Virus record (IMG/VR): IMGVR_UViG_2585427735_000015
Reading direction: 5' to 3' (one strand)
Length of the DNA stretch: 7,881 nt
Source of the DNA: a virus
Taxonomy: Duplodnaviria > Heunggongvirae > Uroviricota > Caudoviricetes
Both the position numbers and the translations under genes were made by a program. The stretch's first letter is position 1. The number at the start of each line of letters is the position of its first letter. Shown piece after piece: positions 1 to 7,881 of this stretch. The notes under the pieces are model-generated. The model made no database searches. It saw only the letters and a program-made list of their open reading frames with translations, and was not told where the DNA came from.

Positions 1-2
1 TG

Positions 3-68
3 ACGTACCTGACAAACCTTTATTTCAAGATTAAAGAAGATAAGCGCAAGGCTGCGAGAGGTGAATAA
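3..68 (+). CDS. Holin C-terminus (pinholin S21-like), 5'-partial at window edge
   Basis: Frame ending in TAA at 66-68 reads ...[21 protein letters not shown], a charged C-terminal tail resembling the phage 21 pinholin as I recall it. The stop overlaps the endolysin ATG (TAATG), typical holin-endolysin coupling. Only 21 codons are visible. Confidence 0.5.
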
Positions 69-565
69 TGCCTCCATCATTACGAAAAGTCGTTGCTGCT
101 GCTATTGGTGGCGGAGCAATTGCTATAGCATCAGTGTTAATCACTGGCCCAAGTGGTAACGATGGTCTGGAAGGTGTCAGCTACATACCATACAAAGATA
201 TTGTTGGTGTATGGACTGTATGTCACGGGCATACAGGAAAAGACATCATGCTCGGTAAAACGTATACCAAAGCAGAATGCAAAACACTCTTGAATAAAGA
301 CCTTGCCACGGTCGCCAGACAAATTAACCCGTACATCAAAGTCGATATACCGGAAACAACGCGCGGCGCTCTTTACTCATTCGTTTACAACGTGGGTGCT
401 GGCAATTTCAGAACATCGACGCTTCTTCGCAAAATAAACCAGGGCGATATCAAAGGCGCATGTGATCAGCTACGTCGCTGGACATATGCTGGCGGTAAGC
501 AATGGAAAGGTCTCATGACTCGTCGTGAGATTGAGCGTGAAATCTGTTTGTGGGGTCAGCAATGA
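68..565 (+). CDS. R: SAR endolysin (phage lysozyme, T4-lysozyme-like fold; phage 21 R / RrrD-type)
   Basis: 165-aa ORF with an N-terminal Gly/Ala-rich weakly hydrophobic segment ([20 protein letters not shown]) typical of a signal-anchor-release domain. E35, D44 and T50 sit at the catalytic-triad positions of R21-type lysozymes. Near-identical by recall to P21 R and the E. coli prophage lysozymes RrrD/RrrQ. Confidence 0.93.
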
Positions 566-1026
566 ACAGAGTAACCGCGATTATCTCCGCTCTGGTTATC
601 TGCATCGTCGTCTGCCTGTCATGGGGTGTTAATCATTACCGTGATAACGCCATCGCCTACAAAGAACAGCGCGACAAAAATGCCAGAGAACTGAAGCTGG
701 CGAACGCGGCAATTACTGACATGCAGATGCGTCAGCGTGATGTTGCTGCGCTCGATGCAAAATACACGAAGGAGTTAGCTGATGCGAAAGCTGAAAATGA
801 TGTTCTGCGTGATGATGTTGCCGCTGGTCGTCGTCGGTTGCACATCAAAGCAGTCTGTCAGTCAGTGCGTGAAGCCACCACCGCCTCCGGCGTGGATAAT
901 GCAGCCTCCCCCCGACTGGCAGACACCGCTGAACGGGATTATTTCACCCTCCGGGAACGACTGGTAATGATGCAGGCCCAACTTGAAGGTGCTCAGCAAT
1001 ACATAACCGAGCAGTGTTTAAAGTAA
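562..1026 (+). CDS. Rz: Rz i-spanin (inner-membrane spanin subunit)
   Basis: ATG at 562 overlaps the endolysin stop (ATGA). N-terminal transmembrane helix ([20 protein letters not shown]) followed by a long charged, predicted coiled-coil periplasmic domain. Position immediately after the endolysin and the embedded Rz1 gene match the lambda Rz architecture. The ORF track's GTG at 550 is a less likely start. Confidence 0.9.
782..967 (+). CDS. Rz1: Rz1 o-spanin (outer-membrane lipoprotein), embedded in +1 frame inside Rz
   Basis: 61-aa ORF wholly inside Rz in another frame. Signal peptide with lipobox (LVVVGC), then a proline-rich mature region ([27 protein letters not shown]), close to lambda Rz1 / K-12 RzoR as I recall them. 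Confidence 0.9.
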
Positions 1027-1097
1027 AATCTTAACTACAATATGATTCATTTTGATGATTGTTTCATAAGGAACAGTGAAGTAAGATCTAAGAGGAG

Positions 1098-1146
1098 TTA
1101 AATTTTATACAGTATAATCATAATATTGCAGCAAGGTGGTTATAAT
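1098..1146 (+). promoter_or_regulatory. Possible sigma70-type promoter elements upstream of trkG (weak)
   Basis: AT-rich intergenic region with exact TATAAT hexamers at 1113-1118 and 1141-1146 and a TTGCAG at 1126-1131, but no -35/-10 pair with canonical 16-18 bp spacing. Based on hexamer matches only. Confidence 0.25.
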
Positions 1147-1163
1147 TGAAAGAATATTTAGAT

Positions 1164-2621
1164 ATGAATACATCTCATGTAAGAGTTGTTACTCATATGT
1201 GTGGGTTCCTGGTTTGGCTCTATAGTCTTTCAATGTTGCCACCAATGGTTGTAGCATTGTTTTATAAAGAAAAAAGCCTGTTCGTTTTCTTTATAACTTT
1301 CGTTATATTTTTTTGCATTGGTGGCGGAGCGTGGTATACAACTAAGAAATCTGGCATTCAATTACGTACCCGTGATGGGTTTATTATAATTGTAATGTTT
1401 TGGATTTTGTTTTCTGTTATTAGTGCATTCCCTTTATGGATTGACTCAGAACTTAATTTAACGTTCATTGATGCTCTGTTTGAAGGGGTTTCTGGAATAA
1501 CAACAACAGGAGCAACTGTAATTGATGATGTTAGTTCATTACCTCGGGCATATTTGTACTATCGGTCACAGTTAAATTTTATAGGTGGTTTAGGAGTTAT
1601 TGTTCTGGCGGTTGCTGTATTGCCATTATTGGGTATTGGTGGTGCAAAGCTTTATCAGTCAGAAATGCCGGGGCCATTTAAGGATGACAAACTCACTCCC
1701 CGCCTGGCCGATACGTCACGGACACTGTGGATAACTTATTCTTTATTAGGTATTGCTTGTATTGTCTGTTATAGACTTGCAGGAATGCCTTTGTTTGATG
1801 CTATTTGTCACGGGATTTCCACAGTTTCGCTTGGTGGTTTCTCAACTCATAGCGAGAGTATCGGATATTTTAATAACTATTTGGTTGAGCTGGTGGCTGG
1901 TTCTTTTTCCCTGCTATCGGCTTTCAACTTCACTCTTTGGTATATTGTTATTAGCAGGAAAACGATAAAACCTTTAATCAGAGATATTGAACTTCGTTTC
2001 TTTCTGTTAATAGCCTTAGGGGTGATCATTGTTACCTCTTTCCAGGTCTGGCATATAGGTATGTATGACTTGCATGGAAGTTTTATTCATTCGTTTTTTC
2101 TTGCCAGCTCCATGCTCACTGATAATGGTTTAGCTACGCAGGATTATGCAAGTTGGCCCACGCACACGATAGTGTTTTTGCTGTTGTCAAGTTTCTTTGG
2201 GGGATGTATAGGTTCAACTTGTGGTGGAATTAAGTCACTTCGATTTCTTATACTTTTCAAACAAAGCAAACACGAGATAAATCAGCTTTCTCATCCCAGA
2301 GCGTTGTTGAGTGTAAATGTAGGAGGGAAGATAGTTACAGATCGTGTAATGAGGTCTGTATGGAGTTTCTTTTTTCTTTATACTCTCTTCACGGTGTTTT
2401 TTATACTGGTGTTAAATGGTATGGGATATGATTTTCTTACATCATTTGCAACAGTGGCTGCATGTATTAATAATATGGGATTAGGTTTTGGGGCTACTGC
2501 ATCGTCATTCGGAGTGCTTAATGACATTGCAAAATGTTTAATGTGCATAGCTATGATTCTTGGTCGCCTTGAAATTTATCCTGTTATTATATTGTTTTCA
2601 GGTTTTTTTTGGCGCTCCTAA
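1164..2621 (+). CDS. trkG: TrkG, Trk-system K+ uptake membrane protein (TrkH/TrkG family)
   Basis: 485-aa polytopic membrane protein starting MNTSHVRVVTHMCGFLVWLY at ATG 1164, which I recognise as E. coli TrkG, the Rac-prophage-encoded TrkH paralogue. Contains repeated pore-loop-like glycine motifs (GITTTGAT, GGFSTH, GLATQDYASW, NNMGLG). Strongly AT-rich compared with flanking phage genes. The ORF track's 1146 start is a TTG 6 codons upstream and less likely. Confidence 0.93.
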   Translation: MNTSHVRVVTHMCGFLVWLYSLSMLPPMVVALFYKEKSLFVFFITFVIFFCIGGGAWYTTKKSGIQLRTRDGFIIIVMFWILFSVISAFPLWIDSELNLTFIDALFEGVSGITTTGATVIDDVSSLPRAYLYYRSQLNFIGGLGVIVLAVAVLPLLGIGGAKLYQSEMPGPFKDDKLTPRLADTSRTLWITYSLLGIACIVCYRLAGMPLFDAICHGISTVSLGGFSTHSESIGYFNNYLVELVAGSFSLLSAFNFTLWYIVISRKTIKPLIRDIELRFFLLIALGVIIVTSFQVWHIGMYDLHGSFIHSFFLASSMLTDNGLATQDYASWPTHTIVFLLLSSFFGGCIGSTCGGIKSLRFLILFKQSKHEINQLSHPRALLSVNVGGKIVTDRVMRSVWSFFFLYTLFTVFFILVLNGMGYDFLTSFATVAACINNMGLGFGATASSFGVLNDIAKCLMCIAMILGRLEIYPVIILFSGFFWRS

Positions 2622-2707
2622 TATATGGCTGATTTATAATTGTGAGTTTAATATTATGTTGACTCACTCATTGATCCAATACCTAACTTTACCAGCAACC
2701 CCTCCGT

Positions 2708-2742
2708 CCCCAGTAGCACTGGCTGCTGGGGTGCGTTTTATT
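2708..2742 (+). terminator. Rho-independent terminator-like hairpin downstream of trkG
   Basis: GC-rich inverted repeat CCCCAGTAGC (2708-2717) / GCTGCTGGGG (2722-2731), 10-bp stem with one mismatch and a 4-nt loop, followed by TGCGTTTTATT. Lies in the trkG-ynaK intergenic region, 17 nt before the next start codon. Confidence 0.5.
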
Positions 2743-2758
2743 CATAAAGCAAGGCTGT

Positions 2759-3550
2759 ATGAGCGAGAAATTAAAGATAGTCTATCGCCCATTACAAGAA
2801 TTGTCACCGTATGCGCACAACGCCAGGACGCACAGCCCTGAGCAGGTGGCACAACTGGTAGAAAGTATTAAGCAATTCGGCTGGACTAATCCGGTGCTGA
2901 TTGACGAAAAGGGCGAAATTATTGCGGGTCACGGTCGTGTTATGGCGGCTGAAATGCTCAAAATGGATTCTGTTCCGGTCATTGTTCTGTCTGGCCTGAC
3001 GGATGAGCAGAAAAAGGCGTACCGCCTGGCAGATAATCGCCTGCCGATGAATGCTGGCTGGGATGAAGATCTGTTGCGGATGGAGCTGTCGGACCTAATC
3101 AATGCTGATTTTGATGTCTCCCTGACAGGCTTCATCCCGACAGAAATTGATGAACTGTTGACGGATGTTTTGCCCGGTACAGGAAATGAGGAGGAGCCGT
3201 ATACGACGAAAATTGATACGCCTGTTTATGAGCCGTCGGGCGGTAAACCGGATATCAGTGAACTGTACGACGATACGAAAACTCAGGAGCTGATCAGCCG
3301 GATACGTTCGGCGTCCCTTGAGCCTGATATTGAGAAATTCCTCCTGTGTGCGGCAGAACGTCACACGGTGTTTAATTTCAGCAGAATTGCGGACTATTAC
3401 GCTCACGCCCCCTCTGAAATTCAGTGTTTTTTCGAGGAGTCGGCGCTGGTGATCATTGATTATCAGCAGGCTATTGAAAATGGATTTGTCCGGATGACGC
3501 AGCGCATGGTGGAGATCATGCATGGTGGTGAGGAGGAGGAATATGCGTGA
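2759..3550 (+). CDS. ynaK: ParB/Srx-like nuclease-domain protein (YnaK-like)
   Basis: 263-aa ORF. The N-terminal ~90 aa carry the ParB N-terminal domain signature (LSPYAHNARTHSPEQVAQLVESIKQFGWTNPVLID...IIAGHGRVMAA, an arginine motif analogous to ParB GERRxRA). The C-terminal ~170 aa are of unknown function and end in an acidic tail (GGEEEEYA). Gene order trkG then ParB-like matches K-12 Rac (trkG-ynaK-ydaY); the symbol is assigned by synteny and recall. Confidence 0.8.
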   Translation: MSEKLKIVYRPLQELSPYAHNARTHSPEQVAQLVESIKQFGWTNPVLIDEKGEIIAGHGRVMAAEMLKMDSVPVIVLSGLTDEQKKAYRLADNRLPMNAGWDEDLLRMELSDLINADFDVSLTGFIPTEIDELLTDVLPGTGNEEEPYTTKIDTPVYEPSGGKPDISELYDDTKTQELISRIRSASLEPDIEKFLLCAAERHTVFNFSRIADYYAHAPSEIQCFFEESALVIIDYQQAIENGFVRMTQRMVEIMHGGEEEEYA

Positions 3551-4475
3551 TGATTTTTGCGCCTTTATTCTGACTCACGGGCGACCGGACAAAGTTCTGA
3601 CTTACCGGACGTTGCGTCGTGCTGGCTATACCGGGAAAATTTTTATCGTTGTTGATGATGAAGATAAGACACGGAATCAGTACATGGCTGAATTTGGTGA
3701 ACAGGTGCTGGTGTTTTCCAAAGCCGATATCGCCAGTCGTTTTGACGAAGCCGATAATTTCTGTGACCGCCGCTCAATTTTTTACGCCCGTAATGCCTGT
3801 TTCGACCTGGCAAAACTGGTCGGGTGTAAATACTTCATTCAGCTCGATGATGATTATCACGAGTTCCAGTTTCGGGTGGATCGCAACTATGACCAGGCCT
3901 ATTTTCCGATAAGGAAACTGGATGCGATCCTTTCTGAAATGCTGGCGTACTACGAATCAATACCTGCTCTTTCCATCGCTATGTCGCAGGGCGGGGATTT
4001 TCTTGGTGACAATGGCGGCCATGCTTCGTGGGTGAAACGCAAGGCAATGAACAGCTTTATCTGTTCGGTTGATCGACCGTTCTCATTCATGGGGCGCATT
4101 AACGAGGATGTGAATACGTACACGAATCTCGGTCGCTGTGGTGAATTGTTTATGACGATCGGTGCTGTCCAGTTAGGGCAGAAACAGACGCAGAAAAACA
4201 GCGGCGGAATGACCGAGCTGTATCTGGATTCCGGAACCTACGTTAAAAGTTTTTACTCCGTCATGTATGCGCCGTCGTGCGTAAAAATCTCACTGATGGG
4301 TGCCAGCCATAAACGCATTCACCATCAGGTCACCTGGAACAACGCTGCAGTAAAAATCCTTCACGAAAAATACAGGAAGAAGACACCCTGCATATCAATG
4401 GGGGTGACAAATGATTCCGTATTCGAAAGTCGAGTCTCTGGCAGCGTGCCGGATGACTGCACAACAAATCGCTGA
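3543..4475 (+). CDS. ydaY: YdaY-like protein with GT-A (nucleotide-diphospho-sugar transferase)-like motifs; function unknown
   Basis: ATG at 3543 is preceded by GGAGGAGGA (a strong SD, 5-6 nt spacer) and overlaps the ynaK stop (ATGCGTGA). Contains CAFILTHGRPD...KIFIVVDDEDK and ARNACFDLAKLVGCKYFIQLDDDY, which resemble the first beta-strand/DD and ARNxG...DxD motifs of GT-A fold glycosyltransferases. The ORF track's ATG at 3522 lies inside the SD and is less likely. Confidence 0.7.
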   Translation: MRDDFCAFILTHGRPDKVLTYRTLRRAGYTGKIFIVVDDEDKTRNQYMAEFGEQVLVFSKADIASRFDEADNFCDRRSIFYARNACFDLAKLVGCKYFIQLDDDYHEFQFRVDRNYDQAYFPIRKLDAILSEMLAYYESIPALSIAMSQGGDFLGDNGGHASWVKRKAMNSFICSVDRPFSFMGRINEDVNTYTNLGRCGELFMTIGAVQLGQKQTQKNSGGMTELYLDSGTYVKSFYSVMYAPSCVKISLMGASHKRIHHQVTWNNAAVKILHEKYRKKTPCISMGVTNDSVFESRVSGSVPDDCTTNR

Positions 4476-4662
4476 CGTTCTGGATGTTGATCTGAACCGA
4501 CTGAAAGAAAATCGGGAAGCAATGACAGATTTTTATGCGGCCATCCGTAAGGGCAGAGCGAAAGGTGAAGCCGAGTTACGAGCGGCATTGTTTAAGCTTG
4601 CCAGAAAAGGGGATGCCTTTGCTCTGCGCGAACTACTCAGGGTGGATAAAAATCAGGACTAA
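4411..4662 (+). CDS. Small hypothetical protein, helical and charged, possible HTH DNA-binding protein
   Basis: 83-aa ORF preceded by GGGGTGA (4401-4407). Overlaps the 3' end of the ydaY-like gene by 65 nt in another frame; an internal ATG at 4453 (MTAQQIADVL...) would cut the overlap to 23 nt. The sequence TAQQIADVLDVDLNRL looks HTH-like. Ends 3 nt before the terS ATG. Confidence 0.45.
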   Translation: MIPYSKVESLAACRMTAQQIADVLDVDLNRLKENREAMTDFYAAIRKGRAKGEAELRAALFKLARKGDAFALRELLRVDKNQD

Positions 4663-4665
4663 CTG

Positions 4666-5760
4666 ATGAGCAGACCGGACTGGGGGGCGTTGCAGCAGGA
4701 GTATATTGCTGAATACACCCGCTCCGGTATATCTCCGGTGGCATGGTGTGAAGCAAGGGGACTGAATTACGCAACAGCCCGTCGTTACATCAAAAAAACT
4801 CCGAAAAATGCGCAGACAGAAATGTGCAAAACTGCGCAAAAAAGTGCGCAGAAAAAATCTGCGCAGACTGCACAAAAGCGGAACGAAAAATCTCAGGAAA
4901 AAAAGCCAGTATTCGATGCGGGCCTGAATGAGGGCGACGCGGAGGAATTTTCGTTCTGTCCCGATGAATTCGGCATTTCTGACCAGCAGGCTAAGTTTGC
5001 GATGCTTGTTGCTCAGGGTAAAAAGCCGACAGAGGCGTACCGACTAGCCGGTTATGAGGGGCAAGGTGCGACAGCTAACAGCAACGCCAGTCGTATGCTT
5101 AGAAATGCCAGGGTTTTTCGCGCTATCAGCTACTTCCGCAATCAGTACCAGAAACGCTATACCGCAGACCTGGATTTACTAGTGAGTCAGTTGATGGCTA
5201 TTGTCCTGGCCGACCCCAATCAGCTTGCACAATTTCGCCGTGTTAACTGCCGTTATTGCTGGGGCGAGAATCATCTCTACCAGTGGCGCGATATAGCAGA
5301 ATTCGACAAGGCAGCGGCGCAGGCTTCCAGAGATGGCAAACCCGAACCGGAATATGGAGGCCTCGGCTTTGTTGATAACGCCATACCCAATCCGGACTGC
5401 CCGAAGTGCTGCGGTGAGGGAACGGGACAGCTTTATATGGCTGATACCACTCTGCTTGATGGGGATGCGCGGCAATTATATGCAGGGGCAAAATTCGGAA
5501 AATTCGGCGTTGAGATCCTGCTGGAGGATAAGGCTGCCGCCCGGCGTGAATTGTTGCGTTTGTTTTCTGCTGGCGGGGCTTTATGTGCAGATAAACGGCT
5601 ACAGGAACTGGAAATTGAACGGCGCAGAATGGAAAACCAGAAGCTGCGCAAAGAGATCGAAACGGTGGAAGATAATGAACATCCCCAGCCTGTGGCGATC
5701 AATATTAATGTGGTTGATGCCAGAGTAAGGAGTGATGAAGATGATCTCTCCGACGCTTAA
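4666..5760 (+). CDS. Terminase small subunit (TerS), extended form
   Basis: 364-aa ORF with AGGA SD 7 nt upstream. N-terminal HTH-like region (ISPVAWCEARGLNYATARRYIKK) and a segment (GISDQQAKFAMLVAQGKKPTEAYRLAGYEG...ANSNASRMLRNARV) matching the small-terminase family signature as I recall it. Sits directly upstream of, and overlaps, the large-terminase gene. Carries an unusual Lys/Gln-rich repeat linker and a CxxC...CxxCC motif. Confidence 0.8.
   Translation: MSRPDWGALQQEYIAEYTRSGISPVAWCEARGLNYATARRYIKKTPKNAQTEMCKTAQKSAQKKSAQTAQKRNEKSQEKKPVFDAGLNEGDAEEFSFCPDEFGISDQQAKFAMLVAQGKKPTEAYRLAGYEGQGATANSNASRMLRNARVFRAISYFRNQYQKRYTADLDLLVSQLMAIVLADPNQLAQFRRVNCRYCWGENHLYQWRDIAEFDKAAAQASRDGKPEPEYGGLGFVDNAIPNPDCPKCCGEGTGQLYMADTTLLDGDARQLYAGAKFGKFGVEILLEDKAAARRELLRLFSAGGALCADKRLQELEIERRRMENQKLRKEIETVEDNEHPQPVAININVVDARVRSDEDDLSDA
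4808..4876 (+). repeat. Degenerate tandem TGCGCA(G/A)A repeats inside terS
   Basis: Six spaced copies of (A/C/G)TG(C/T)GCA(G/A)A at about 4808, 4823, 4832, 4844, 4859 and 4868, spaced 9-15 bp apart. They encode the AQK/SAQ-rich peptide NAQTEMCKTAQKSAQKKSAQTAQKR. Confidence 0.45.
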
Positions 5761-6496
5761 TGTGCCTCAGGCGCGATTTCTTTCAATGCCCCATAAATTT
5801 AAAGCCTATATTGCTGGTTTTGGCTCGGGCAAAACATGGGTTGGGTGTGGCGGCATATGCAAGGGGATTTGGGAGCATCCAGGTATAAATCAGGGATATT
5901 TTGCGCCAACGTATCCCCAAATTCGCGATATTTTTTACCCTACAGTGGAAGAAGTTGCTGCTGACTGGGGATTGAACGTAAAAATTAATGAGGGAAATAA
6001 AGAGGTTCACTTTTATTACGGACGCCAGTATCGGGGAACCACTATCTGCAGATCGATGGAGAAGCCACAAACGATCGTCGGTTTCAAAATTGGTAATGCG
6101 TTGGTGGATGAACTGGACATTTTGCCGAAGGAAAAAGCCAGAACGGCGTGGCGCAAGATAATTGCACGTATGCGTTATAAGATTGATGGACTTCGCAACG
6201 GTATTGACGTTACAACCACGCCGGAAGGATTCAAATTTGTCTACGAGCAGTTTGTTAAAGCCGTGCGTGAAAAAACAGAGCTGGCCTCACTGTATGGTCT
6301 GGTGCAGGCATCTACTTTCGATAATGAAAAGAACCTGCCAGCAGATTACATTCCTTCGCTTCTTGAATCATACCCTCCAGAGCTGATTAAAGCCTATCTT
6401 CGAGGACAGTTTACTAACCTGACAAGTGGTACTGTTTACCATCAGTTTGACCGGAAACTGAATAATTGCGAAGAAGTGGAGCAGCCAGGGGAGTAA
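5741..6496 (+). pseudogene. Terminase large subunit (TerL), N-terminal ATPase fragment truncated by IS4 insertion
   Basis: Start ATG 5741 is preceded by TAAGGAG (5726-5732, 8-nt spacer). Walker A (AGFGSGKT) and Walker B-like (ALVDELD) motifs typical of the TerL ATPase domain. The ORF stops after ~250 codons at a TAA that coincides with the first bases of the IS4 left end, whereas typical TerL is 450-650 aa and the nuclease domain is missing. Confidence 0.8.
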
Positions 6497-6542
6497 TGCC
6501 GATCAGTTAAGGATCAGTTGACCGATCCAGTGGCTGTGTAAG

Positions 6543-6577
6543 AATCCGGAAACGCTCACTTGTTTCCGGATTTTTTT
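6543..6577 (+). terminator. Perfect 11-bp stem-loop plus T7 tract in the IS4 left end, immediately upstream of the transposase ATG
   Basis: AATCCGGAAAC (6543-6553) and GTTTCCGGATT (6562-6572) are exact reverse complements with an 8-nt loop, followed by a T-run through 6577 and then ATG at 6578. No SD is apparent outside the stem. Confidence 0.55.
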
Positions 6578-7881
6578 ATGCACATTGGACAGGCTCTTGA
6601 TCTGGTATCCCGTTACGATTCTCTGCGTAACCCACTGACTTCTCTGGGGGATTACCTCGACCCCGAACTCATCTCTCGTTGCCTTGCCGAATCAGGTACT
6701 GTAACGCTACGCAAGCGCCGTCTTCCCCTCGAAATGATGGTCTGGTGTATTGTTGGCATGGCGCTTGAGCGTAAAGAACCTCTTCACCAGATTGTGAATC
6801 GCCTGGACATCATGTTGCCGGGCAATCGCCCCTTCGTTGCCCCCAGTGCCGTTATTCAGGCCCGCCAGCGCCTGGGAAGTGAGGCTGTCCGCCGCGTGTT
6901 CACGAAAACAGCGCAGCTCTGGCATAACGCCACGCCGCATCCGCACTGGTGCGGCCTGACCCTGCTGGCCATCGATGGTGTGTTCTGGCGCACACCGGAT
7001 ACACCAGAGAACGATGCAGCCTTCCCCCGCCAGACACATGCCGGGAACCCGGCGCTCTACCCGCAGGTCAAAATGGTCTGCCAGATGGAACTGACCAGCC
7101 ATCTGCTGACGGCTGCAGCCTTCGGCACGATGAAGAACAGCGAAAATGAGCTTGCTGAGCAACTTATAGAACAAACCGGCGATAACACTCTGACGTTAAT
7201 GGATAAAGGTTATTACTCACTGGGACTGTTAAATGCCTGGAGCCTGGCGGGAGAACACCGCCACTGGATGATACCTCTCAGAAAGGGAGCGCAATATGAA
7301 GAGATCAGAAAACTGGGTAAAGGCGATCATCTGGTGAAGCTGAAAACCAGCCCGCAGGCACGAAAAAAGTGGCCGGGACTGGGAAATGAAGTGACTGCCC
7401 GCCTGCTGACCGTGACGCGCAAAGGAAAAGTCTGCCATCTGCTGACGTCGATGACGGACGCCATGCGCTTCCCCGGAGGAGAAATGGGGGATCTGTACAG
7501 TCATCGCTGGGAAATCGAACTGGGATACAGGGAGATAAAACAGACGATGCAACGGAGCAGGCTGACGCTGAGAAGTAAAAAGCCGGAGCTTGTGGAGCAA
7601 GAGCTGTGGGGTGTCTTACTGGCTTATAATCTGGTGAGATATCAGATGATTAAAATGGCGGAACATCTGAAAGGTTACTGGCCGAATCAACTGAGTTTCT
7701 CAGAATCATGCGGAATGGTGATGAGAATGCTGATGACATTGCAGGGCGCTTCACCGGGACGTATACCGGAGCTGATGCGCGATCTTGCAAGTATGGGACA
7801 ACTTGTGAAATTACCGACAAGAAGGGAAAGGGCCTTCCCGAGAGTGGTAAAGGAGAGGCCCTGGAAATACCCCACAGCCCC
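6578..7881 (+). CDS. insG: IS4 transposase InsG (DDE family with YREK signature), 3'-partial at window edge
   Basis: Open frame from ATG 6578 to the window end (~434 codons, no stop), so absent from the supplied ORF track. Translation [36 protein letters not shown]... matches IS4 InsG as I recall it, with DDE-like residues in [19 protein letters not shown] and [13 protein letters not shown]. Confidence 0.9.

Follow-up and report, generated by a model that had tools for sequence, protein, structure and literature searches.

The concept of the ‘moron’ was reportedly set out for lambdoid phages by Juhala, Hendrix and colleagues in 2000, and the morons of such phages include bor and lom of lambda as well as those of HK97 and HK022. 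The trkG locus considered here resembles these in being an extra gene of benefit to the host, with a deviant nucleotide composition, a promoter of its own and expression from the prophage, and it occupies the slot after Rz/Rz1 that bor fills in lambda-type phages (bor, however, lies on the opposite strand, whereas trkG points the same way as the late operon).

The gene itself (b1363) belongs to the Rac prophage of Escherichia coli K-12 (Schloesser et al. 1991, J Bacteriol 173:3170, cited in PMC9898762) and was studied there by Tanudjaja et al. 2022 (PMC9898762). Its product and TrkH both belong to family PF02386 and both use TrkA, but TrkG is Na+-dependent, repressed by H-NS and encoded at 38% GC, whereas TrkH is Na+-independent, not regulated by H-NS and encoded at 53% GC (PMC9898762). 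A further parallel is argF of CP4-6, which is likewise a core metabolic or transport paralogue residing in a cryptic prophage and equipped with a constitutive sigma-70 promoter; argF, however, is described as a product of duplication or transposition of the host argI gene (PMC5811629), while TrkG forms a distinct enterobacterial clade whose closest relative outside prophage copies is only 79% identical. The low GC content, foreign origin, sigma-70 promoter and partial H-NS silencing of trkG have all been published, so that the core finding is already known, and confirming a textbook prophage-borne host gene alters little. The present analysis adds the boundaries of the cassette, the probable backbone origin of the hairpin that follows it, and comparative support for a TTG start codon.

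The window (the whole stretch of DNA analysed, 7,881 nucleotides) contains trkG of a Rac-type lambdoid prophage of E. coli. Its DNA is matched at 100% by the Rac-type prophage of strain SE11, and its TrkG is 100% identical to annotated TrkG and matches PF02386 (TrkH/TrkG family) over essentially its full length (484.2 bits, gathering cut-off 27; positions 3-500 of the 502 in the profile). The cassette is 99.9% identical to that of BW25113, and the K-12 locus has in common with it low GC, a Rac location, H-NS repression and a published promoter of its own (PMC9898762, PMC5811629). The two prophages differ downstream, where a deletion in K-12 begins inside ynaK, while that in the window is more complete, with a full-length ParB-like gene, TAGT, terS and a terL cut by IS4. 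Among 5,426 complete E. coli genomes, 1,551 carry the cassette, 1,516 of them at an identity of at least 99%. The features of the window are as follows.

68-565, + strand: phage lysozyme of RrrD type, penultimate in the lysis cassette (PF00959, 154.8 bits; rrrD in the SE11 annotation)
562-1026, + strand: Rz i-spanin, its last three codons (from 1017) within the low-GC segment (PF03245, 179.5 bits)
782-967, + strand: Rz1 o-spanin lipoprotein, in another frame within Rz (PF06085, 69.5 bits)
1017-2691, + strand: low-GC cargo cassette, comprising a regulatory spacer, trkG and an AT-rich 3' spacer (change points, homology breaks)
1113-1118, + strand: TATAAT, most likely the -10 element of the trkG promoter (near-invariant block in E. 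coli and E. albertii; active lux fragment 652-1163)
1133-1139, + strand: Shine-Dalgarno (SD) sequence AAGGTGG, 6 nt 5' of TTG 1146 (anti-SD duplex)
1141-1146, + strand: second TATAAT, in the spacer between SD and start codon, sharing the first T of TTG 1146
1146-2621, + strand: trkG from TTG 1146, 491 aa, Trk-system K+ transporter subunit of the TrkH family (PF02386, 484 bits)
2622-2691, + strand: AT-rich 3' spacer, GC 0.271
2705-2743, + strand: intrinsic-terminator-like hairpin (13-pair stem, one bulge, ACUG loop) plus UUUUAUUC
2736-3550, + strand: start of shared backbone, with T-run, SD and ParB_N-domain gene (94-96% identity to trkG-less prophages)
2759-3550, + strand: ParB_N-domain gene, the full-length form of K-12 ynaK (PF02195)
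3543-4475, + strand: gene of the TET-associated glycosyltransferase (TAGT) family (PF20691, 121 bits)
4666-5760, + strand: terminase small subunit, terS (PF03592; SE11 annotation agrees)
5741-6496, + strand: terminase large subunit, terL, N-terminal part only, interrupted by IS4 (PF03237)
6494-7881, + strand: partial IS4 element running past the window end, transposase from 6578 (PF13006, PF01609)

An earlier note on this DNA had described trkG and its flanking spacers as visibly richer in AT than their surroundings, and the GC profile bears this out, with a discontinuity that separates positions 1027-2758 (GC 0.374) from the flanks at 1-1026 (0.486) and 2759-6496 (0.488); the composition of the trkG segment is distinct in the sense expected of a moron. 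GC is 0.255 in the upstream spacer and 0.381 in trkG, and a two-breakpoint model of GC, which gains 39 log-likelihood units, places the low-GC block at 1017-2691. On the left, homology to many lambda-type phages breaks at 1016/1017, within Rz and three codons 5' of its stop, and a diverged copy in E. albertii has the same left junction; on the right, near-identity to 10 trkG-less loci begins exactly at 2736. The stretch 2622-2691, which contains a small hairpin (2642-2667) without a T-run, was not significantly similar either to phages without trkG or to the flanks in E. fergusonii and E. albertii. The segment specific to trkG-bearing prophages is 1017-2691.

Low GC might be ascribed simply to a Phe/Ile/Leu-rich polytopic membrane protein, with no foreign origin involved: TrkG is very hydrophobic, T-rich codons reduce GC, and the AT skew of the gene is strongly negative along its length. 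Yet GC3 is 0.323 in trkG against 0.40-0.55 in the neighbouring genes, the non-coding spacers are lower still (0.26-0.27), E. coli trkH has the much higher GC quoted above, and homologues at 62-71% amino acid identity have a GC of 0.44-0.59, in line with their hosts (0.58 for an Enterobacter homologue and 0.58 for its host). Because homologues in other genera match the GC of their hosts, the protein does not force a low value; the GC3 and homologue comparisons refute the explanation, which keeps practically no probability, and the foreign composition of trkG is supported. A search for the donor identified none, the best non-prophage relatives being those of E. fergusonii (79% aa identity), Citrobacter sp. 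(77%) and Pectobacterium (75%). The first and the last of these have a GC below that of their surroundings or host genome, and the Citrobacter sp. copies (0.455-0.465) lie on contigs of similar GC. Between trkG and its E. albertii copy dN/dS is 0.049, which shows purifying selection and a retained function.

The trkG segment is located between the lysis and packaging modules, as the earlier note had it, but the clean insertion between two phage genes that was also proposed is unproven. A composite query of 500 nt each from Rz and the ParB-like gene, searched by megablast for E. coli and by blastn for phages, did not find the two flanks within 1 kb of each other in any of 5,426 E. coli genomes or 50,697 phage records. 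In the trkG-less relatives the lysis cassette is of another kind, and lambda-type phages with the same Rz carry bor downstream of it, so that the flanking genes were not found adjacent in related phages. Comparison with trkG-less prophages, suggested earlier as a way of defining the insertion, located the right-hand homology break (2736), and that with lambda-type phages the left-hand one (1016/1017); neither yielded an unoccupied site. The two junctions are separate module boundaries, so that insertion of the segment as a single event is no more than an inference from them.

The GC-rich hairpin and T-tract claimed downstream of trkG are present, at 2705-2743. A hairpin at 2708-2731 was the top terminator-like match in the scan (10 pairs, 7 of them GC), and the fold extends to 2705-2735 with a stability of -22.5 kcal/mol (z = -3.4; 0/200 shuffles as stable), directly followed by TTTTATT; the stable GC-rich stem-loop and subsequent U-run of an intrinsic terminator are therefore both found at 2705-2743. 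Natural variants leave the pairing intact or make it stronger, as where 35 loci have C-G in place of U.G.

The earlier proposal was that promoter, gene and a terminator at 2708-2742 were imported as one self-contained unit between formerly adjacent genes. The order of promoter, gene and terminator-like hairpin does exist at trkG, and high identity to trkG-less phages starts only at 2736, past the hairpin; but the hairpin region (2692-2735), with its GC of 0.705, begins only after the low-GC block has ended (at 2691), a significantly similar hairpin occupies the same position in trkG-less phages, none is found downstream of the E. albertii trkG copy, and no adjacent pair of flanking genes came out of the genomes and phage records searched. 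In the shuffle tests, 2692-2735 scored 18 against the hairpin preceding the ParB gene of the trkG-less locus L082 (7.5+/-1.3 in shuffles; 0/1000 as high), and against L058 and L075 1/1000 shuffles did as well in each case; the similarity is short (about 42 nt at about 74% identity), and two of the five comparators were marginal, at about 65/1000 shuffles. An Rfam scan of the window returned nothing at E up to 1, and in two trkG-less loci it returned tRNAs and sok only, with nothing on the conserved element before ParB.

Given its position beyond the low-GC block, its likeness to the hairpin in phages without trkG and its absence in E. albertii, the hairpin is probably a resident terminator element of the phage backbone rather than trkG's own, and import of the whole as one unit is improbable. 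In these respects trkG differs from the lambdoid morons, since no empty site was found for it in the collections above and the terminator, by all appearances, is part of the common backbone and not of the insert. The ‘classic moron layout’ of the earlier note accordingly stands in part: distinct composition and a promoter of its own are there, whereas a terminator imported with the gene and adjacent flanking genes are not. The literature search found no paper that terms trkG a moron, its three matches being coincidental. A terminator of the kind usually assigned to a moron is here likely a backbone insulator common to trkG-less phages, which makes the promoter-gene-terminator layout alone a poor ground for calling an inserted unit; the slot that separates Rz/Rz1 from the packaging module is a cargo site whose edges recombine independently.

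The autonomous transcription that had been proposed for trkG is supported by published work. Genomic SELEX located a constitutive sigma-70 promoter at trkG, the only one reported in Rac, RNA polymerase holoenzyme binds this promoter in vitro, and the authors state that trkG was inserted along with it (PMC5811629); a lux fusion of the fragment equivalent to 652-1163 of the window is active (PMC9898762). In the spacer ahead of trkG, E. coli and E. albertii agree at 82% of positions; at four-fold degenerate sites the figure is 52.5% (P about 1e-11), and on this comparison the spacer is under purifying selection. The position of trkG inside the late operon, in the same orientation, would suit a gene that is a mere passenger of the phage late transcript, but in K-12, where the Rac prophage is cryptic and uninduced, trkG mRNA is at about the level of trkH (PMC9898762), and the active lux fragment, the in vitro binding of holoenzyme and the constraint on the spacer all speak against it. 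Expression from the late transcript only is refuted by the published expression data and has very little probability left.

Two TATAAT hexamers lie upstream of ATG 1164, as the earlier note had claimed. Their -35 hexamers are poor (3/6 matches each), for which reason both are missing from a generic promoter scan, which found 7 promoter-like sites in the window, fewer than the 11.4 of shuffled sequence; it is published activity and spacer conservation that establish the promoter, the letters themselves offering only TATAAT boxes with weak -35 elements. The hexamer at 1113-1118 is most likely the -10 element, which would put the transcription start near 1125, and it precedes the SD, a requirement for translation from TTG 1146. 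The second, at 1141-1146, is probably not the main -10 element, because its mRNA would be without the SD and the ribosome-mapped TTG.

H-NS partly represses trkG, which is derepressed in an hns mutant (PMC9898762), and binds it by ChIP-chip; trkG is listed in H-NS regulons and is induced 3.8-fold by SlyA (PMC5797941). The trkG segment is AT-rich, as H-NS-silenced xenogeneic DNA would be; of 13 window matches to a 10-nt H-NS nucleation motif (at most 2 mismatches) 4 fall in the cassette, which is no enrichment and tells little either way. As a separate matter, homology of the upstream spacer to the chromosomal trkG-like locus of E. fergusonii was rejected in a shuffle test (score 10 against 9.1+/-1.3, not significant); co-import of the promoter from an E. 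fergusonii-like locus was withdrawn because this similarity is not significant, and what the two have in common upstream is the SD, spacer and TTG only.

The earlier note had remarked that no good SD precedes ATG 1164 and had questioned that start, on both counts with reason: the anti-SD duplex there is -0.9 kcal/mol, against -7.7 kcal/mol at TTG 1146, and only 1.7% of in-frame positions in the body of trkG have an SD as good. Across the 35 loci of the TrkG subclade, which come from at least nine genera and comprise 32 relatives, the window and its two identical copies, the start codon is TTG or GTG in 35/35 and AUG in none, with a purine-rich SD at the same place in all (mean duplex -6.9 kcal/mol); codon 1146 is TTG in all five aligned homologues. 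The position of ATG 1164 is ATG in all Escherichia copies and reads CTG, ATT or CTC outside the genus. TetRP ribosome profiling gives values of 75, 59 and 36 at the TTG (-18) versus 0, 11.8 and 0 at the ATG (PMC4909307). TTG 1146 is the better supported codon and probably the true start, giving a protein of 491 aa; the RefSeq start, ATG 1164 (485 aa), lies six codons 3' of it.

Initiation at ATG 1164 could dispense with an SD if the mRNA began just past TATAAT 1141-1146 and had a leader of ~11 nt. That hexamer is a perfect match 18 nt upstream of the ATG, all RefSeq annotations use this codon, all Escherichia copies have it, and lacZ fusions of both start codons, in which expression was highest with both mutated, did not confirm the TTG (PMC4909307). 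Initiating ribosomes, on the other hand, map to the TTG and scarcely or not at all to the ATG, the anti-SD duplex of the latter is feeble, and every subclade member outside Escherichia lacks the ATG, while all members have TTG or GTG behind a strong SD; a start at ATG 1164 is accordingly judged unlikely. Beyond the preferred start at TTG 1146, it may be proposed, though with slightly more doubt than belief, that virtually all E. coli genome records misplace the start of TrkG by six codons, and that the 491-aa Enterobacterales subclade has kept UUG or GUG with a strong SD, suggesting selection for a fixed, throttled rate of translation of a channel-like, Na+-conducting membrane protein. The subclade differs from TrkH in its non-AUG start, and its 486-aa sister subclade has an AUG start and a weak SD. 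The N-terminus of TrkG in structural and expression studies that use the RefSeq start is probably six residues short, and constructs cloned from ATG 1164 are also without the native SD.

The overall picture that we consider likely is one of a trkG cargo cassette in a Rac-type prophage, with its own promoter, a TTG 1146 start and a backbone hairpin as terminator. The low-GC segment of ~1.7 kb (1017-2691) carries a TrkH-family K+ transporter gene together with its constrained upstream regulatory region, on the strand of the late operon, between the end of Rz/Rz1 and a pre-existing backbone hairpin ahead of the ParB-like, TAGT and terminase genes. In the lysogen, a sigma-70 promoter belonging to trkG itself (with TATAAT 1113-1118 most likely as -10 element) drives its transcription, which H-NS partly silences because the segment is AT-rich; translation from TTG 1146 through the AAGGTGG SD gives the 491-aa protein, and the transcript would most likely end at the backbone hairpin (2705-2743), so that the packaging genes stay silent. 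TrkG with host TrkA then provides a second, Na+-dependent route of K+ uptake. For the packaging genes to be reached in lytic growth, antiterminated late transcription would need to pass through trkG and the hairpin.

The gene order on either side agrees with the earlier note upstream, where the lysis genes precede trkG, but the packaging genes do not come next downstream, the ParB_N and TAGT genes intervening before terS and terL. The match of terL with intact prophages stops at 6493, directly before the IS4 element.

The first part of the window (1-6493) is 100% identical to a Rac-type lambdoid prophage of many E. coli strains (for example, SE11), and every gene of the window lies on the + strand. 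These genes, with identities from Pfam, are:

68-565, +, lysozyme
562-1026, +, Rz
782-967, +, Rz1, embedded in Rz
between Rz and the ParB_N-domain gene, +, trkG
2759-3550, +, ParB_N-domain gene, the full-length form of K-12 ynaK
3543-4475, +, TET-associated glycosyltransferase (TAGT) family gene (PF20691)
between the TAGT gene and terS, +, small ORF
4666-5760, +, terS
after terS, cut at 6493/6494 by IS4, +, N-terminal half of terL
6494-7881, +, IS4 element (Nterm_IS4 and DDE transposase), whose inverted repeat begins TAATGCCGATCAG at 6494

The IS4 element splits terL after codon 251 and donates a stop codon; because terL is uninterrupted in intact relatives, the prophage copy in the window is unable to package DNA. 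The ParB_N-domain gene (of which K-12 ynaK is a truncated remnant) overlaps the TAGT gene, and the pair (2759-4475) lies immediately ahead of terS. The window has no TET/JBP gene, and the pair could form a DNA-modification or packaging-associated module.

The four elements described in the earlier note (an AT-rich island, TATAAT hexamers, a hairpin followed by a T-run, and the lack of a Shine-Dalgarno (SD) sequence at the annotated ATG) are real. Its reading of trkG as a ‘moron’ holds for foreign composition and for a promoter of its own, both already known, and is not supported for a terminator of its own or for insertion between adjacent phage genes; the finding is thus largely a known one, with minor refinements to the terminator, the junctions and the start codon. 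The GC content of 1027-2758 is 37.4% (versus 48.6% and 48.8% in the left and right flanks), the GC3 of trkG is 0.323 (versus 0.40-0.55 for its neighbours), and a two-breakpoint likelihood model delimits a low-GC block at 1017-2691 with a gain of 39 log units. That trkG is a compositionally foreign cargo gene is an established point, argued since 1991 from its low GC (38% versus 53% for trkH) and its location in Rac (PMC9898762). The gene is partly repressed by H-NS and StpA, is expressed in uninduced K-12 at about the level of trkH, and has an upstream fragment, placed here by its primers at window 652-1163, that is active in a lux fusion (PMC9898762). Genomic SELEX located a constitutive sigma-70 promoter at trkG, with no other reported for Rac, and its authors state that the gene entered along with this promoter (PMC5811629); trkG is also induced 3.8-fold by SlyA overexpression and appears in two H-NS regulon data sets (PMC5797941). 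Since its own promoter, its expression and its foreign origin are all in the literature, the central claim is already published: the SELEX promoter and the lux-active fragment bear out autonomous transcription, and expression from the late phage transcript only is excluded by that in uninduced K-12.

The TrkG clade is widespread across Enterobacterales, and in most genera the GC content of the gene matches that of the host (Enterobacter, 0.58 versus 0.58; Serratia, 0.53 versus 0.56; Xenorhabdus, 0.44 versus 0.43), so that the low GC is not forced by the protein. The closest relative outside a prophage is a chromosomal gene of E. fergusonii (locus L084 6001-7458, GCA_052538815.1; 79% amino acid identity, GC 0.424), flanked by porin genes and a DJ-1/PfpI gene; next come Citrobacter sp. 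(77%), with copies of GC 0.455-0.465 on contigs of comparable GC, and Pectobacterium brasiliense (75%), with GC 0.418 against flanks at 0.489. Like the Pectobacterium copy, that of E. fergusonii falls below its surroundings or host genome in GC. Among the TrkG relatives compared, none qualifies as a donor, the best being that at 79%.

Comparison with Rac-like prophages lacking trkG had been proposed in the earlier note as a way to define the boundaries. On the left, Rz is shared with many lambda-type phages (about 94% identity), every one of which loses homology after 1016 (directly after GAGCAGTG), where their sequence runs into bor on the opposite strand; the low-GC segment therefore takes in the Rz stop and the three codons ahead of it, and the junction is also the composition change point (1017). 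On the right, the ParB-like module occurs in 1,610 genomes, almost always directly after the trkG stop, and at 94-96% identity in ten trkG-less loci (E. coli STEC711 and nine viral contigs), in all ten of which high identity begins exactly at 2736, the first T of the T-run. These trkG-less phages carry a lysis cassette of a different kind, with no detected similarity to window 1-1026, and have in common a conserved structured element of about 100 nt whose terminal GC-rich hairpin abuts the same T-run.

The hairpin that the earlier note had described downstream of trkG folds here at 2705-2735 (a 13-pair stem, -22.5 kcal/mol, z = -3.4), with UUUUAUU directly after it, and no other terminator-like site of the window is as strong. 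The segment 2692-2735 (GC 0.705) aligns with the element of locus L082 in unchanged register at about 74% identity over 42 nt, with a score of 18 against 7.5+/-1.3 that none of 1000 dinucleotide shuffles reached; 1 of 1000 reached the score observed for L058 and L075, and the matches to L002 (STEC711) and L056 are marginal (about 65 of 1000). The preceding stretch, 2622-2691 (GC 0.271), matches neither trkG-less phages nor E. fergusonii or E. albertii flanks. A diverged cassette (84% nucleotide identity) in an E. albertii prophage remnant retains the Rz remnant, the left junction and the upstream spacer; its similarity is lost just past the stop codon, and no comparable hairpin lies downstream of it. 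The likeness to the trkG-less element, the absence in E. albertii and a composition change point at 2691 together point to a diverged terminator already resident in the phage backbone, upstream of which trkG landed; the terminator is most likely borrowed rather than the gene's own. Among trkG-bearing loci, hairpin variants keep or strengthen the stem. An empty site, with Rz adjoining the hairpin, was found neither in 5,426 complete E. coli genomes nor in the phage collection, so that a single clean insertion, strictly between adjacent genes, stays an inference.

The 100-nt element itself (L056 5880-5977; also L002, L058, L065, L068, L073, L075, L079, L081 and L082) lies just upstream of the ParB-like gene, is kept regardless of the sequence further upstream, and consists of a long imperfect hairpin (GGCATTACAGCAGCCC...GGGGCTGCGATAATGCC) followed by a terminator-like one. 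It matches no Rfam family; candidate roles are those of an sRNA, a double terminator and a packaging-related site.

The annotated ATG at 1164, already suspected for want of an SD, has an anti-SD duplex of only -0.9 kcal/mol. The ORF opens six codons upstream, at TTG 1146, with AAGGTGG 6 nt before it (-7.7 kcal/mol), an SD equalled at only 1.7% of the in-frame positions along the body of the gene. The resulting 491 residues equal the length of many TrkG homologues, whose N-termini align with the extension (MKEYLD/MNTSH against MQRYLT/LNFSQ and MKNHYS/INSSQ), and a DNA alignment across five genera shows TTG throughout, with CTG, ATT or CTC in place of ATG 1164 outside Escherichia. In a survey of 80 loci (one genome per species), all 35 of the subclade (32 relatives, the window and two identical copies) carry TTG (25) or GTG (10) there, and their SD duplexes average -6.9 kcal/mol; the 40 members of the sister 486-aa subclade (Serratia, Buttiauxella, Xenorhabdus and others) all start at an ATG that precedes the conserved His by 11 codons and follows a weak SD (mean -2.3). 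Independent evidence comes from K-12, where tetracycline-inhibited ribosome profiling lists a new start, ‘TTG -18’, for trkG, with signals of 75, 59 and 36 at the TTG versus 0, 11.8 and 0 at the ATG of the annotation (PMC4909307). The start is most likely TTG 1146, although RefSeq still gives the ATG. The lacZ fusions made as a check in the profiling study did not confirm the TTG: expression was highest with both codons mutated (PMC4909307, Fig. 4), which could reflect a third start (such as ATG 1197) or repression tied to translating the first codons.

The TATAAT hexamers were found at 1113-1118 and 1141-1146, each with a 3/6 match at -35; a generic promoter scan of the window listed neither and found no excess of promoter-like sites, so that a promoter is not established from sequence alone. 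Use of TTG 1146 would require transcription to start upstream of 1133, which favours the first hexamer as the -10 element and would put the second in the SD-to-start spacer. Although synonymous divergence between the copies of E. coli and E. albertii is near saturation (dS 0.92; 52.5% identity over 200 four-fold sites), the spacer 1027-1145 has 82% identity (P about 1e-11), and hardly any change is seen from TATAAT 1113 to the end of the SD; the coding sequence is under strong purifying selection (dN/dS 0.049). This conservation is a stronger argument for upstream function than similarity to E. fergusonii; homology of the spacer to the flank of the E. fergusonii gene was not supported by a shuffle test.

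In the E. fergusonii gene, annotated like E. coli trkG from the downstream ATG, the codon equivalent to TTG 1146 is likewise an in-frame TTG, preceded by GGAGG at a distance of 5 nt. The deposited 485-aa homologue of Citrobacter sp. Awk 4 (L095 / L089 3961) begins at a CTG in the DNA, with an in-frame TTG and SD six codons upstream, and looks like an annotation artefact in which the E. coli start was transferred.

The trkG cassette occurs in 1,551 of 5,426 complete E. coli genomes, nearly always as a single copy at least 99% identical, and in 10 deposited phage records; 15 of its 1,558 places in the E. coli genomes are plasmid-borne, which may reflect phage-plasmids or the capture of prophage fragments. 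Different cargo precedes the lysis genes in the trkG-less relatives: STEC711 (L002 2901-4119) encodes a scabin-related ADP-ribosyltransferase together with the B subunit of a subtilase-family AB5 toxin, and L056 and L082 have several tRNA genes, with a hok/sok locus additionally in L056.
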